Shown in pieces: positions 8,067 to 63,753 of a stretch of DNA of 64,000 nucleotides. Where the stretch lies: positions 176,762-240,761 of IMG/VR virus record IMGVR_UViG_2706796186_000001; one strand, given 5' to 3'. Below the pieces are notes generated by a model that was not told the origin of the DNA, made no database searches, and saw nothing but the letters and a program-made list of their open reading frames with translations. Source of the stretch: a virus. Its lineage: Duplodnaviria; Caudoviricetes. Position 1 is the stretch's first letter. Each line of letters opens with the position of its first letter. The translations under genes and the position numbers were made by a program.

Positions 8067-8546
8067 ATGAACGTGTATTTCGATTACGATGACTCGCATA
8101 TCCGGCAGTTGTGGGTTGATGCGTTTGACAGTATTCGTATCGATTTGCAAGAGTATCTGCGAAATCAGATGCGTGAGTGCTCGCACACGGAATCGGTTGT
8201 TCTGGCGCAAACGTTGTTACAGCCCACCTATCAGGTGTTTTACAAACAACACGACACTGTGTTTCGGACGGTCGTGGAAAAGGAAGACTTAGACGCATCG
8301 GAGTATTCGTTTGAGCTTGACGATGAAGCATACCGGAAACTCATCACCCAGAGTATCGAGGTGTCGGTTGTGGCAACGAAGAAGACGTGGAATGTCAGGA
8401 CGTTGCCGGTGTTATTCGACCGGGATATCGTCTGCCAAAAAATCGAGGCCATTCTCTTCGAGCATTTGGATGAGTTTGTCATTGAGTTGGTTGGGTACAT
8501 GGAAGCCTTTGTCAACGAACTGATAGAGCAACGTCGAAATAAATAA
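8067..8546 (+). CDS. Hypothetical protein
   Basis: 159 aa, ending at a terminator. Confidence 0.7.
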   Translation: MNVYFDYDDSHIRQLWVDAFDSIRIDLQEYLRNQMRECSHTESVVLAQTLLQPTYQVFYKQHDTVFRTVVEKEDLDASEYSFELDDEAYRKLITQSIEVSVVATKKTWNVRTLPVLFDRDIVCQKIEAILFEHLDEFVIELVGYMEAFVNELIEQRRNK

Positions 8547-55942: not shown

Positions 55943-58054
55943 ATGATATTACGTGAACGTGATTGGGGTTTCTATCCGGGCGCTTTAGCGGATGACACCA
56001 CCAAGAACAAACACTTTATGTATTTCGCCGACACCCTCAAAGGGCTCGGTGTAAAGCACTGGTATTTGCATCTTGCACTTCTCGACCCGGAACTGCAAGG
56101 TGTTGATCCGCACGACCCACACCTGACTGTTGAGCAACAGGCGCGTGTGATTGCAGAATGTGCACGTAACCCATGGTACTACATCCGTGAATGCCTGCGC
56201 GTTCCTGCGGATGGTACTGACGGTGTACCCTTTAAGATTGACCGCGGTAACTTTGCGATGTTTTGGATTTTCTTCAATAACATCGACGTGGCCATCGAGT
56301 TCCTTCGTCAGCACGGTAAGACCGTCGGGATGTGTTCGCTCCTGAGTTGGCTGCTGCGTTTCCTTGAGAAGTCGCGTACAATTCTGGTCACCAAAGGACC
56401 GGTACTGCGTGAGGAAACCATCACCAAACTGAAAGAGCTGCGCAACTGCCTGCCGAAATACCTGTGGCCTATCCACCCGGATGACCCTGACAACAAAGAA
56501 GCCTTTGCGTGTATGGCGCAGGGCAACAAACTGATTACCGCGATTGGTCAGAACGACGAACAATCTGCAAACGGTGTGGGCCGTGGTCTAACCGCCGGTC
56601 GTCTGTTCTCGGATGAGGGCCCCTTCACCAACAACATCCACATCATTCTTCCGGCCGCGCTGGCATCCGGTACGGCTGCCCGTAACATCAACGAAGAATC
56701 CGGTGTGCCTTACGGTAACGTGTTCGCAACAACGCCCGGCGATCTGGCCACCCCAGAAGGTCAGTACATGTACGAACTGATGACTTCGGGGATTAACTGG
56801 GACGAGCGTTATGTCGATATCCCAACCCGTCAGCAGTTGATTGACATGATTCGACACAACTCCACGTCGAAGATGCCACGTATCATGTTCTACGCGAAGT
56901 TCAACCACCGTCAACTGGGTACCTCCGATGCGAAACTCGCAGATATGATTGCGAACGCCACGGGTAGCCCAGACCAAATCCGCCGTGACTTCGGTGGCGA
57001 ATGGACTACCGGTGGTTTCAACAAACCGTTCTCCGGTGACGATGCTCGCCGTATGAACGGGTCGCGTATGCGTGCCACGTACAAGGACATCAGTCCAGCC
57101 AACTACATCACCGATTGGTATTACGGTGAAATGGAAATGGCAACGAAACTCCATGACCGCCACATCATCGGTCTGGATACGTCGGAAGCGGTAGGTCGGG
57201 ATGCGATTGCCATGTCGATTGTCAACTCGGTGACCGCAGAGTACGCCGGGAAGATGACCGTGAACGAAACCAACGTCATTGGCTTTGCCATTCACTTGGC
57301 GGACTTCATGGAGCGGTTCCCGAATACGGTACTTATTCTCGAACGTAAGTCGACCGGTTCATCGGTTGCAGATGCAATCATCCTTCAATTGCAGTCTCGC
57401 GTCCGTGACTTGCACCGTCGTCTGTATGTCAGGATAACGGACACCAACAGCCGTAACGACGATTTGTATAAGGAGTATGCTCGCGGGCCAGCAGGCGGAA
57501 ACGCTGAACGGTTCTGGGACAAATTCCGTAAGTACATCGGCTTCACTACGGATGGTGATAAACGTCGGAAATTATATGGTGAGGTCTTCACCATGGCTCT
57601 CCGTTTATCAGCCCACTTGTTACGCAGTGGTGAACTCATCGACCAAATCCTTGGTTTGGTGGAGCGCAGCGGACGTATTGACCACCAGAAATCCGGTCAT
57701 GATGACTTGGTCATTTCTTGGCTACTGGCAATGTGGCTGCTCTTGTTTGGTAAGAACCTGAATCACTACGGGATTACCAACAACCGACTAATGATTCGAA
57801 ATCGCAATATCCTTGTAGGTGGAGATGTTACTGGAGACGAGGACGCGATGGTTGAAGAGGAGGAGAAGCAACAGCAACTGATGGGTGAGATTGAAGAAGT
57901 GATGAAGCAAAGTGTGGGCGTGACTTGTCCTGTACGCCAAATGACCTTGCGTAATCGCCTCCAGTCCCTCATCGCACAACTTAACACTGATATGCGCAAC
58001 GTCGCATCGATGGAAAGCTTGAAAGAGCTTATCCAGCGCCAGAGGATGAAGTAA
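55943..58054 (+). CDS. terL: Terminase large subunit
   Basis: Walker A LRQHGKT, GRGLT, Walker B LFSDEG, motif III ATTPG, nuclease IGLDTSE...HDDLVISW. Confidence 0.92.
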   Translation: MILRERDWGFYPGALADDTTKNKHFMYFADTLKGLGVKHWYLHLALLDPELQGVDPHDPHLTVEQQARVIAECARNPWYYIRECLRVPADGTDGVPFKIDRGNFAMFWIFFNNIDVAIEFLRQHGKTVGMCSLLSWLLRFLEKSRTILVTKGPVLREETITKLKELRNCLPKYLWPIHPDDPDNKEAFACMAQGNKLITAIGQNDEQSANGVGRGLTAGRLFSDEGPFTNNIHIILPAALASGTAARNINEESGVPYGNVFATTPGDLATPEGQYMYELMTSGINWDERYVDIPTRQQLIDMIRHNSTSKMPRIMFYAKFNHRQLGTSDAKLADMIANATGSPDQIRRDFGGEWTTGGFNKPFSGDDARRMNGSRMRATYKDISPANYITDWYYGEMEMATKLHDRHIIGLDTSEAVGRDAIAMSIVNSVTAEYAGKMTVNETNVIGFAIHLADFMERFPNTVLILERKSTGSSVADAIILQLQSRVRDLHRRLYVRITDTNSRNDDLYKEYARGPAGGNAERFWDKFRKYIGFTTDGDKRRKLYGEVFTMALRLSAHLLRSGELIDQILGLVERSGRIDHQKSGHDDLVISWLLAMWLLLFGKNLNHYGITNNRLMIRNRNILVGGDVTGDEDAMVEEEEKQQQLMGEIEEVMKQSVGVTCPVRQMTLRNRLQSLIAQLNTDMRNVASMESLKELIQRQRMK

Positions 58055-61551: not shown

Positions 61552-61601
61552 GATTGGCCTATCAATCTTAACTCAACCTATTGACTATCGAGGAATTAAC
61601 T

Positions 61602-62225
61602 ATGTTCAACTTCACTAAAGTAGCCGCCCTGTCTTCTCAGAACCTGAACCTGTCCGTTGAAGAGAATGAAATGATTCGCTTCATCGAGCAAACCGCGAAG
61701 AGTGTTCCGGTATTCGATTTCTACGTGTCTGGCGAGACCGCTATCGCGTTAACGGTAGAAAACAATACCGTGACCTTGGTCTGGGGTAAAGAGTTCACTC
61801 TGGAGCTTCTGGAGGACTTTGTGCGCCATACCTACCCAAGCATGAAAAACTTCTTGGTGTACCTGAAACAAGAAATCCCATGCCCGACCGGTTGGAAACA
61901 AACTTCCGTGTGCTTCACGCTGGTCAATCCCGCAGGCCACATCGGCGATTACACCGCTACTGATTTGGGTAACGGTTTCATGAACATCCAAACACGCTAC
62001 GGTGCAGCAGTCATCGGAGTAGCCGGTGCGGCGGGTACGCTGATTCTGTCTGATGAGCCATGCAGTGCACAGACGTGGGGCTTGATGTATGACATCGCTG
62101 GGAACTTTGCGAAAGAGGGTCGCCCGTTTACCGTACAGTCTACCACGCCGAAGTGGAATGAGTCCCTGTATCAAAACAGCGACTTCGAATTCCGTTCGCA
62201 GTCGATTTCAAAAACGTATGCCTAA
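61602..62225 (+). CDS. Hypothetical early protein
   Basis: SD GAGGA before ATG 61602; monocistronic between a promoter and a terminator. Confidence 0.75.
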   Translation: MFNFTKVAALSSQNLNLSVEENEMIRFIEQTAKSVPVFDFYVSGETAIALTVENNTVTLVWGKEFTLELLEDFVRHTYPSMKNFLVYLKQEIPCPTGWKQTSVCFTLVNPAGHIGDYTATDLGNGFMNIQTRYGAAVIGVAGAAGTLILSDEPCSAQTWGLMYDIAGNFAKEGRPFTVQSTTPKWNESLYQNSDFEFRSQSISKTYA

Positions 62226-62233
62226 TCAAAAAC

Positions 62234-62268
62234 GGGGAGCTTCGGCTCCCTATTTTTTTTGTTTTTTT
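62234..62268 (+). terminator. Rho-independent terminator
   Basis: GGGAGC-TTCG-GCTCCC followed by TATTTTTTTT. Confidence 0.9.
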
Positions 62269-62755
62269 GTGGCCCCATGCTGATACCCAATGCAAAATTG
62301 TACACTTTTTAACCATGGGGTAAATTCGCTCTGAATGCGTTTCTGAGATGGGGTGCATCTGACCCAGTACACTTGGGTTCCCAATACCCCATTCGTGCAG
62401 CAGGGAATCGTACAGCGCGAAATTGGGCGGGTTGCAAACCGGTTTCCGGGTGTGGGGTCGGCTGCGCGACCGCCGATGCCGATCACACGTTGGGGTGCGC
62501 TTGCGCGTTTTCAGGATCTAATTCAGGAATTCAGGACAAACGAATCTTCGTGAGTTTGGCTGAATTTGGTTGTTTTTTAACCGCTTACTCTCCCCGGCCT
62601 TTAGCCGGGATCGAGATTAGTTCAATTTAAAAATTTTTGTTTTAAAAACAAGCACTTGGGTTATATCCTACCCCCGATCCTGAACCCCCTCTGGGGTTCA
62701 GTTAAAAAGTCCTTTCATTATACGCGTGCACGCGCACGCCATTTCCTACAGGATC

Positions 62756-62850
62756 TTTTAAAAGAATTAATAATATTATTAAATATATATATCCCGTAGG
62801 GATAATATTAATAATTTAAATATATATAAACCCTACGGGTTTTAAATAAC
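62756..62850. repeat. AT-rich core with direct and inverted repeats (candidate origin or packaging site)
   Basis: Two TAATATTA...TAAATATATA units, followed by CCCGTAGGG and by its reverse complement CCCTACGGG respectively. Confidence 0.55.
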
Positions 62851-63010
62851 TAACGCGCGTGATCCTTATTACGAGATCTAATCCGGGAACCGGGGATCGG
62901 GGGAAAGTCGATTTACAAGTTTTCCCAGTTCTATGCACGACGAACCAAACGCTTGCCCAGACATCCCTGGGCCTTTTTCGAGAATCCACGATGCGGGTTC
63001 TGGACAAAGC

Positions 63011-63345
63011 CAGCGGGACAGCCTAACACTTCCCAACGCGTTTCAGGTTTCGGTCAGAGACTCGGACTTCGCATTCCGACGAGACCGGTACCGTGGTAGC
63101 CCCACGGGAGACTCACCGCTTTCGGGCCGTCACCCGATACGATGCCATGGAACTTACCCGTGGTCTGCGCGTGAACTCTCCCTGGGGTGTGGCCAAATTC
63201 GAATTCGGCTTGCGGCCGATACCCGTACACGGTTTAGCCCCGTGTACACCGGAGAACCTTCCGACAGGAGTGTGATCCAAATCTTGGCGGCTCGGAAAGA
63301 CGAGAGGGGGATGCCCCCACGCTGTGAAGCGCCGGGGCGTCGCTG
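63011..63345 (+). ncRNA. Candidate large structured non-coding RNA (~335 nt, family unknown)
   Basis: Ends pair (CAGC..GAC..GCCT / GGGC-GTC-GCTG) and enclose about a dozen nested helices found by eye. G-U pairs and a GUGA tetraloop favour the + strand. No credible ORF. Confidence 0.55.
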
Positions 63346-63372
63346 AATTAAATTCTAACCAGGAGTGTGACC

Positions 63373-63753
63373 ATGACCGACGTAACGTTCGAAAGTCTTG
63401 CCCCAACCCGGATGCCTGACCCGGTGACCTTCCCCCGCGATGGGTCGATGGTACCAGCTGCCGATGTGGTGGCTTGGTTACGCACCGGTTGTCCGACCAC
63501 GCACTGCCTGACTGCTGCTCTGCTCGAAAAACATTTCGAGTCGATTGCGTTTCAGCCGTTCCCCAACTCGCTGGCCATGGCTGCGGTTGGTAAACTCAAA
63601 CCGGAGAGCGGTGGTTATCACCTGCCGGTCTGTGTGAACACGCCGTACTCCCACGCAGAACTTGCGGTGGTCGGTGAGTTAGTCCGTACCGAAGCCCGAC
63701 TGCGTCACCCGAACTTCGGTAACTTCTCCACGGTACCCGGTTGGGAAAAATAA
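63373..63753 (+). CDS. Hypothetical protein
   Basis: SD AGGAG before ATG 63373. Confidence 0.7.
   Translation: MTDVTFESLAPTRMPDPVTFPRDGSMVPAADVVAWLRTGCPTTHCLTAALLEKHFESIAFQPFPNSLAMAAVGKLKPESGGYHLPVCVNTPYSHAELAVVGELVRTEARLRHPNFGNFSTVPGWEK

Follow-up and report, generated by a model that had tools for sequence, protein, structure and literature searches.

What is encoded in the only large gene-free stretch (62230–63372, 1.1 kb) of the 64,000-nucleotide (nt) viral DNA analyzed here (the window)? The window is the final 64 kb of a complete virus genome of 240,761 bp (IMG/VR record IMGVR_UViG_2706796186_000001). In blastn searches, its nearest public relatives were Salmonella phage pSal-SNUABM-04 (97% identity, region-wide) and Erwinia Machinavirus phages; that is, this genome and its nearest relatives are SPN3US-like jumbo phages. 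The gene-free stretch lies 4.9 kb downstream of the large terminase gene (TerL; 55943–58054). The original prediction, made from the sequence alone, placed a densely nested RNA-like structure of approximately 335 nt at 63011–63345. We are highly confident that the locus holds a genuine conserved structured RNA. The refined unit spans approximately 62935–63347 on the + strand (approximately 415 nt), with 63011–63345 as its core. Its conserved fold, as predicted by comparing homologous sequences, is composed of two stacked 5' hairpins, a multi-helix core with invariant junction strands, and a long 3' hairpin capped by a GNGA loop.

The dense structure proved to be real and above chance. The segment 63011–63345 showed a minimum free energy of −141.9 kcal/mol; versus shuffled sequences, its z score was −2.74 for the + strand and −1.91 for the − strand, whereas the refined unit 62935–63347 reached z = −3.44 and none of 100 shuffles was equally stable. 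The folding excess of the shorter segment is only moderate; the decisive evidence is comparative. The original prediction had proposed covariation in SPN3US-like homologues as a check, and RNAalifold, applied to 15 sequences, predicted 59 pairs, 21 of them with compensatory change. Compensatory changes in the aligned sequences support at least eight helices on the + strand across at least four genera, and frequent G–U pairs mark the + strand as the functional one.

An ATG open reading frame (ORF) of 137 amino acids (62933–63346) spans the element, and short hypothetical ORFs are annotated here in some relatives. We nevertheless find it hardly credible that the locus is this protein-coding ORF or that its GC-rich fold arose by chance. 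In pEa_SNUABM_43 (pEa43), 1-nt indels disrupt the frame; each frame contains 2–8 stops in most homologues; indels of 1–2 nt fall in loops; and the ORF has no Pfam match. Moreover, the substitutions are compensatory in stems rather than located at third codon positions. Judged from these alignments, the RNA encodes no conserved protein.

We scanned the window with Rfam 15, which comprises 4227 covariance models, and nothing reached the gathering score across the whole window. At E ≤ 10, the region 62200–63500 gave only chance matches (10.8–21.6 bits versus cut-offs of 55–128), plus one weak − strand match within the element. The earlier statement that the segment carries no signature of a known RNA was therefore borne out by both scans. 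A likeness to the T-box (AGGGGUGGGUAC versus AGGGUGGUACC) was rejected because Rfam gave no T-box match. Full-text searches of the literature returned no account of this RNA. The RNA is new as a family in that none of the 4227 models match, and it is undescribed as far as database and literature searches go. The description of the segment as an undescribed structured RNA or a large 5' leader is thus supported by the absence of Rfam matches, the covariation, and the unconserved ORF.

Homologues were collected by blastn, by exact-pattern scans of IMG/VR and metagenomes, and from contigs encoding the syntenic 376-aa protein. We obtained 29 distinct homologous sequences, all at one syntenic locus. 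The carriers are Machinavirus, Erskinevirus (phiEaH2 and Asesino), Seoulvirus (SPN3US, the SPFM phages, SPAsTU, and pEa_SNUABM_29), a Wellington/pEa_SNUABM_11-like clade, an E. coli "plasmid" (NZ_CP173450.1, 222 kb), and metagenomes. The SPN3US copy is located at approximately 605–1130 of JN641803. Conservation is patchy, with near-invariant blocks between inserts of variable length, and the downstream gene varies from clade to clade. A covariance model covering the 3' domain only (R1) found a single copy in the genome of the window; in the genomes scanned whole, the RNA is present once. The copy in NZ_CP173450.1 (L051; 149301–155141) lies on a circular replicon of 221,873 bp from an E. coli isolate of urinary origin, where it sits in a 2-kb gap devoid of genes, upstream of a tRNA gene; both the AT-rich block that precedes the RNA and the RNA itself are divergent. 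The replicon has the appearance of a jumbo phage from this group. When 5,426 E. coli genomes were searched with blastn, this phage-like "plasmid" was the sole match and the chromosomes showed no similarity, which indicates that neither host rRNA nor another host RNA gave rise to the RNA.

At the 5' end, a GC-rich hairpin (T0, 62955–62972, + strand) with a terminator-like score is followed by C and U5 (62974–62978). The T0 stem differs in each clade and always pairs (GCCCAG/CTGGGC, GCCCGA/TCGGGC, CGCCTCGG/CCGGGGCG, GTCCTGGG/CCCAGGAC, and others). Stacked on T0 is H1 (62973–63010, + strand), in which CUUUUUCGAGAAUCC pairs with GGGUUCUGGACAAAG(C), as recognized by covariation. In H1, 90.5% of cells were paired and 5 of the 12 pairs were changed on both sides, compared with 38–59% in slid controls. 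One U–G pair in H1 is nearly invariant, being present in 17 of 21 distinct sequences and replaced by C–G in the others. The same two-hairpin fold of T0 and H1 emerged when 17 homologues were folded one by one. Because the U5 tract after T0 is one strand of H1 and the outermost H1 pairs covary (CG, GC, and UA), we conclude that the RNA includes T0. A start at 63011, as first proposed, is therefore too late; the covarying hairpins at 62955–63009 belong to the unit.

The multi-helix core, also on the + strand, begins with two junction strands that are nearly invariant across clades, CCUAACAC (63022–63029) and UUCAGGU (63042–63048). H3 (63050–63088) is formed by UCGGUC (63050–63055) and GACCGG (63083–63088) and encloses a TCGGA/TCCGA hairpin (63062–63079). 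It is placed between the universal UUCAGGU, directly before it, and a universal ACCGYGG after it. In most homologues, H3 has 6–7 bp of differing sequence with inserts of 26–89 nt; in clade B and L053, it has just 2–4 bp with inserts of 6–62 nt. The next feature (63090–63194) comprises the invariant ACCGUGG and then a long-range helix, H4, between GGUAGCCCCA (63095–63104) and UGGGGUGUGGCC (63183–63194), whose alifold pairs show CG/UA/GC swaps. H4 encloses CGGG/CCCG (63123–63136) and GCCAUGG-AACUUAC-CCGUGGU (63144–63164). The GAACUUAC loop is kept in all clades but the Wellington-like one, and its hairpin covaries. Two further helices (63205–63247) are supported by covariation, namely, H5 (UCGGC/GCCGA, 63205–63219) and H6 (GUACACGG/CCGUGUAC, 63225–63247). 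Elsewhere, H6 reads CCCAGCG/CGCUGGG, GUCUGCG/CGCAGAC, or GCUUGUG/CGCAAGC, and both H5 and H6 are missing in the Wellington-like clade.

Toward the 3' end of the + strand, the H7 region (63249–63286; GGAG..CUUCC..GGAG) contains a strand resembling a Shine–Dalgarno (SD) sequence, AGGAGUGUGAUCC (63266–63278), and an invariant UUG (63284–63286). The hairpin formed by the second and third of the three segments (Y and Z) was 67% paired when tallied on the MAFFT alignment, a value lowered by misalignment. The ultra-conserved core, AUCUUGGCGGCUCGGAAAGACGAGAGGGG (63281–63310), includes H8 between CUCG (63291–63294) and CGAG (63301–63304). This core is nearly invariant in 25 sequences, across genera with approximately 50–75% protein identity, and its changes are limited to G63287, the H8 loop, and, in some clades, the first three bases. 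A long-range pairing of GCGG (63287–63290) with CCGU (63091–63094) is possible; the aligned pairs are consistent (UG, CG, UA, and two UC) and essentially without covariation. The unit ends with H9 (63307–63347), a long hairpin of 63307–63323 with 63328–63344 that has a GUGA loop (63324–63327) and a conserved tail, GCUGA(A). Among 25 sequences, the 14 pairs of H9 were 97.1% paired and 8 of them were changed on both sides (slid controls, 37–50%); the loop is GNGA in every case, being GUGA, GCGA, GGGA, or GAGA.

About half of the helices listed in the original prediction survived this comparison. Homologues agree with CGGTC/GACCG, which corresponds to H3, with TCGGA/TCCGA, for which pEa43 shows an A–U to U–A swap, with TCGGG/CCCGA, with GCCATGG/CCGTGGT, in which three pairs swap, and with GTACACGG/CCGTGTAC. 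CTCG/CGAG is invariant in the homologues, and CGCT-GTGA-AGCG holds with a loop that is always GNGA. The predicted closing helix did not hold, nor did the predicted ends or the 3' multiway junction. The 3' strand of the proposed terminal helix (63011–63024 with 63335–63345) pairs instead with 63307–63316 in H9. CCGTGG/CCACGG is not conserved, and GGTAGCCCCA has the long-range partner TGGGGTGTGGCC instead. GGGGG/CCCCC, GGGTGT-GGCC/GGCC-ATACCC, and CCAA/TTGG occur in the clade of the window only and are not conserved in other clades. All five of these clade-specific helices clash with covarying alternatives. A closing pairing of UUCAG with CUGAA was also considered and rejected, as it showed no covariation and was mismatched in four clades in the alignments.

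Several of these features are reminiscent of self-splicing introns, which occur in chimalliviruses. If the element were a degenerate or atypical group I-like intron or another mobile ribozyme, the near-invariant U–G pair in H1 and the terminal G of the element (GCUG|A) would be explained, as would a 169-aa HNH_3 homing endonuclease ORF that three relatives (L025, L018, and L036) carry in a peripheral loop of the element. Neither the U–G pair nor the terminal G is in itself a sign of splicing, and group I introns often, although not always, carry such an ORF. This ORF scored E = 2e-5 and 24.6 bits, just below the Pfam cut-off of 24.8 bits, and is absent from the window; in L025 (12464–12973), it has its own SD and is located directly upstream of the core, with a partial duplication of GGTGATCC and intact flanking RNA. 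However, the models for Intron_gpI, Intron_gpII, and group II D1–D4 gave no match in 62200–63500 even at E ≤ 10, and the internal loops of H9 are symmetric, unlike the bulge of group II domain V. No P3/P7 pseudoknot or P10 could be threaded, and no P7 partner for the strand before GCGG was found by eye. In addition, the element interrupts no gene; stops are present in all frames on both flanks, there is no exon continuity, and the element is intergenic in all relatives. Its intergenic position does not vary from genome to genome, and none of the close relatives has an empty site. We therefore regard an intron origin as very improbable.

How would such an RNA be transcribed? A promoter-like motif, TTTACA-N14-TATG, is located at 62912–62935 on the + strand, with a predicted start at G62935; in its fuller form, GATTTACAAG-N-TATG (62910–62935), it fits the phiKZ middle element and TATG with G as +1. 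In phiKZ, middle promoters consist of AAanTTACc at about −24 and TATG, with G as +1 (PMC4666361). The pattern T(T/A)TACA-N13–15-T(A/G)TG occurs 17 times on the + strand and twice on the − strand of the 240.8-kb genome, compared with 2.4 in shuffles, often after a T-run and upstream of genes. Judging from this motif, the RNA probably has its own phage promoter. The motif precedes the RNA in most relatives; in other clades, it is 60 to 370 nt away, indicating that these relatives carry longer 5' parts. TTACG variants of the motif are present in SPFM4. Within the window, copies of the motif begin at 8239, 17900, 20435, 62912, and 63759, and the 17 + strand copies together with the TTACG variants could serve to map candidate middle-type promoters of this phage group.

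Downstream of H9, most relatives have a T-run and then a further promoter motif for the next gene; this separate motif between the RNA and the next gene suggests that the RNA stands alone. In the clade of the window, gene 63373–63753 (126 aa) has no motif of its own and the RNA runs directly into its SD; here, to go by the sequence, the RNA would also be co-transcribed with this gene and can double as its leader. The gene is absent from pEa43, pEa6, Caitlin, and ChrisDB, and its C-terminal part is similar to a 245-aa protein encoded after the RNA, and preceded by a promoter motif, in the Wellington-like clade (L025:13122–13859).

These arrangements bear directly on the alternative that the whole element is a cis-acting 5' leader or attenuator, in which the RNA, T0, a purine/CUCC/purine switch (X-Y-Z), and a mini-ORF formed by the SD-like strand and UUG govern the read-through into, or translation of, genes 63373 onward. 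In the window as well as in pSal-SNUABM-04, pEa_SNUABM_10, and pEa_SNUABM_4, approximately 25 nt separate the end of the RNA from the start codon; the SD follows the RNA closely, and no promoter motif intervenes. The segments GGGGGA, CUCC, and GGAGG could form two mutually exclusive hairpins, and terminators directly behind promoters, with possible antitermination, have been reported in 201phi2-1 and phiKZ (PMC11512511). Nevertheless, the promoter motif after the RNA in most clades implies that the next gene is a separate unit, the downstream gene is not the same between clades, and pEa43 and pEa6 keep the RNA although the gene after it is deleted. With 370–500 nt and about ten helices, the element is also far above the size of known leaders, and translation coupling would be unlikely if transcription is confined to the phage nucleus, as is established for phiKZ and presumed here. 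Overall, we consider a leader function rather unlikely.

A possible function of a stand-alone RNA is indicated by the SD-like strand. GGAG(G)UGAUCC, which in the window is AGGAGUGUGAUCC at 63266–63278, complements GGAUCACCUCC of the 16S rRNA 3' tail, whose sequence was checked on E. coli rrsH. Among all 18-nt windows of the genome + strand, this site forms the strongest duplex with the 16S tail (−20.6 kcal/mol). The same site is the best within the 270–530-nt element in 24 of 25 homologues (−17.6 to −25.5 kcal/mol), whereas shuffled elements averaged −13.5 to −14.7 kcal/mol and at most 1 of 300 (0–1) attained the observed value. The strand remains SD-like even though its partner differs, with CUCC/GGAG in most clades and CACC/GGUG in the Wellington clade. 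The invariant UUG lies 5 nt beyond it. According to the alignment, the ORF from this UUG has 5, 13, 14, 20, or more than 40 codons depending on the clade, and in the SPN3US type its frame is shifted by an insertion of 1 nt in a loop. No conserved peptide was found across clades. Duplex scans against full 16S, 23S, and 5S rRNA gave only non-specific GC-rich matches.

On this basis, our preferred mechanism is that a stand-alone RNA acts by docking on the host 30S subunit; we advance it tentatively, as its probability falls short of even. The phage non-virion RNA polymerase would transcribe the RNA from the phiKZ-middle-type promoter, starting at G62935 as predicted from the motif. GGAG(G)UGAUCC would then pair with the single-stranded 3' tail of 16S rRNA in the 30S subunit, and this pairing would bring the invariant UUG and the ultra-conserved core onto the ribosome. 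The RNA might thereby be a ribosome-bound decoy or regulator, or might itself be stabilized by 30S binding.

Several observations weigh against this mechanism. The SD-like strand is predicted to be partly paired in H7, and its exposure in thermodynamic models is not above average; part of its conservation could be structural. In L051, the strand is degenerate and weakened, and the complementarity to the 16S tail was spotted after many motifs had been inspected. A pure anti-SD sponge would harm the phage as well, because phage genes also use SD sequences. The start at G62935 is a prediction resting on the motif. Furthermore, T0 followed by CTTTTT looks like an intrinsic terminator, although the U-tract also pairs in H1; as this terminator-like T0/U5 lies only 20 nt past the predicted start, a full-length RNA needs read-through. 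Terminators right behind promoters, and possible antitermination, have been described for 201phi2-1 and phiKZ (PMC11512511). R1 gave no match in Derbicusvirus Phobos (75% TerL identity) or Vibrio phage pVa-21, and inspection of the syntenic gaps of both revealed no homologue. A relative from a Shewanella metagenome-assembled genome (MAG; L052:8260–8936, GCA_051654845.1) lacks the ultra-conserved 3' domain. In pEa_SNUABM_6 (L005), a 114-nt deletion between two direct TAGCCCC repeats, equivalent to 63097–63236 of the window, takes out the interior of H4, H5, and half of H6, that is, about a third of the RNA. The RNA thus looks dispensable in places, and the missing matches in Phobos and pVa-21 together with this deletion suggest that it is an accessory of one clade, within which the core is still strongly conserved. 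The pEa_SNUABM_6 sequence was deposited as a complete genome.

If the resemblance to an SD were incidental to H7, the RNA could act independently of the ribosome, as a ribozyme or as a scaffold that binds proteins, in which the invariant junction strands would form a catalytic, ligand-binding, or protein-binding core. The large size, the many helices, the near-invariant core of 28–30 nt, the junction strands, the GNGA loop, and the variable peripheral inserts are in line with this alternative; ribozymes typically show an invariant core with a variable periphery, as do large orphan RNAs, for example, OLE, GOLLD, and ROOL. However, no catalytic motif was recognized, and no conserved gene for a partner protein is adjacent, as Pfam found nothing in the neighbors. 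It is also hard to call the SD-likeness incidental when the site ranks first in the genome and is the best site in 24 of 25 homologues. We accordingly give this alternative limited credence.

The sequence directly before the RNA is also unusual. An AT block at approximately 62687–62901 (core, 62756–62850) contains the most AT-rich 100 nt of the genome (83%). Within it, an inverted pair, CCCGTAGGG/CCCTACGGG, surrounds an AT spacer of 29 nt, with GC-rich palindromic boxes and GATC sites on the flanks. The genome has no second copy of the block, which is conserved between genera and also present in the Shewanella-MAG phage; in NZ_CP173450.1, it is enlarged to approximately 190 nt of pure A/T. The Shewanella-MAG phage, a distant relative, retains the block together with two promoter motifs and a helix similar to H4 (GGTAGTCCGGCAG/CTGCCGGATAGTACC), and leads directly into an SD and ATG. 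A role of the AT block as a generic early promoter was rejected because no recurring motif was found elsewhere in the genome; we regard the block, which lies near the terminase gene, as a candidate origin or pac element. The cumulative GC skew of the genome rose monotonically and gave no origin signal. Between the AT block and the promoter motif, a 25-mer, CGCGCGTGATCCTTATTACGAGATC (62854–62878), shows 96–100% identity from Machinavirus to Erskinevirus and SPN3US. Farther upstream, the half of the gene-free region at 62270–62705 is hairpin-rich and partly conserved (matches at 62358–62502 and 62478–62861), and a hairpin, GGGGAGCTTCGGCTCCC (62234–62251), with T-runs on both strands looks like a bidirectional terminator closing gene 61581–62225.

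This setting raises the question of whether the RNA serves packaging or replication, as a motor RNA similar to pRNA, a cofactor in pac recognition, or a transcript associated with an origin. TerL is encoded 4.9 kb upstream, the adjoining AT block is singular in the genome and conserved as far as the Shewanella-MAG phage, and many database records begin or end at this locus. The promoter, however, is directed away from the AT block, and G–U-rich covariation points to a folded + strand RNA rather than duplex DNA. Phobos lacks the RNA despite 75% TerL identity, and there was no Rfam match at all, pRNA included. Taken together, a role in packaging or replication appears improbable.

To our knowledge, apart from rRNA, RNase P, tmRNA, and introns, few large RNAs combine a complex fold with an invariant core, and those that do have often proved to be ribozymes or central machines. 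In phiKZ, the phage nucleus, which is a protein shell, parts transcription from translation, and host ribosomes are managed from inside. A conserved RNA with a promoter motif and the top 16S-tail complement of its genome thus offers a testable handle on the dealings between phage and ribosome, and marks the largest gene-free region of these genomes, near the terminase gene, as functional. More speculatively, the RNA may belong to a novel class of phage RNAs and dock on the anti-SD tail of the 30S subunit, with its core acting as a decoy, a translation re-programmer, or a ribozyme on the ribosome or bound RNAs; we hold this extended proposal to be doubtful as it stands. If it is true, a ribosome-targeting RNA made by the polymerase of a jumbo phage would help the takeover of host translation. 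Because SPN3US and its Salmonella host are genetically tractable, tests are feasible.

We compared the RNA with known systems. Like phi29 pRNA, it is a structured RNA encoded by a phage, here in the terminase neighborhood; it is three times larger and has no match to the pRNA models in Rfam. Phage group I introns with HNH genes share its approximate size, the U–G pair in the first hairpin, the 3' terminal G, and, in some copies, a looped-out HNH ORF, but this RNA interrupts no gene and has no Intron_gpI match, and no P3–P7 core or guanosine-binding site was found. The 5' untranslated region-derived and intergenic small RNAs of phiKZ and 201phi2-1 likewise have a terminator right after the promoter and are conserved among related giant phages (PMC11512511), whereas they are shorter than 250 nt with simple hairpins and the present RNA is multi-domain and 415 nt long (at least 600 nt in relatives).

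STAB-SD is an SD-like stabilizer in the 5' untranslated region of cryIIIA of Bacillus thuringiensis. It is similarly a strong complement of the 16S tail without a conserved ORF (in this RNA, −20.6 kcal/mol and rank one), and by analogy, 30S binding could protect or anchor this RNA. STAB-SD is short, near the 5' end of an mRNA, and found in Gram-positive bacteria, whereas the strand described here lies approximately 330 nt into a complex noncoding RNA, is partly paired, and is followed by the invariant UUG and the core. In architecture, the RNA resembles OLE, GOLLD, ROOL, and raiA, which are also several hundred nt long with covarying helices, invariant junction strands, and GNRA-type loops; none of them gave a covariance-model match to this RNA. 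Some copies of GOLLD and ROOL are phage-borne, as this RNA is, and in both cases function is unreadable from sequence. Unlike these families, this RNA occurs in nucleus-forming jumbo phages of Enterobacterales and combines a promoter motif of the phage-polymerase type with an extended SD-like strand.

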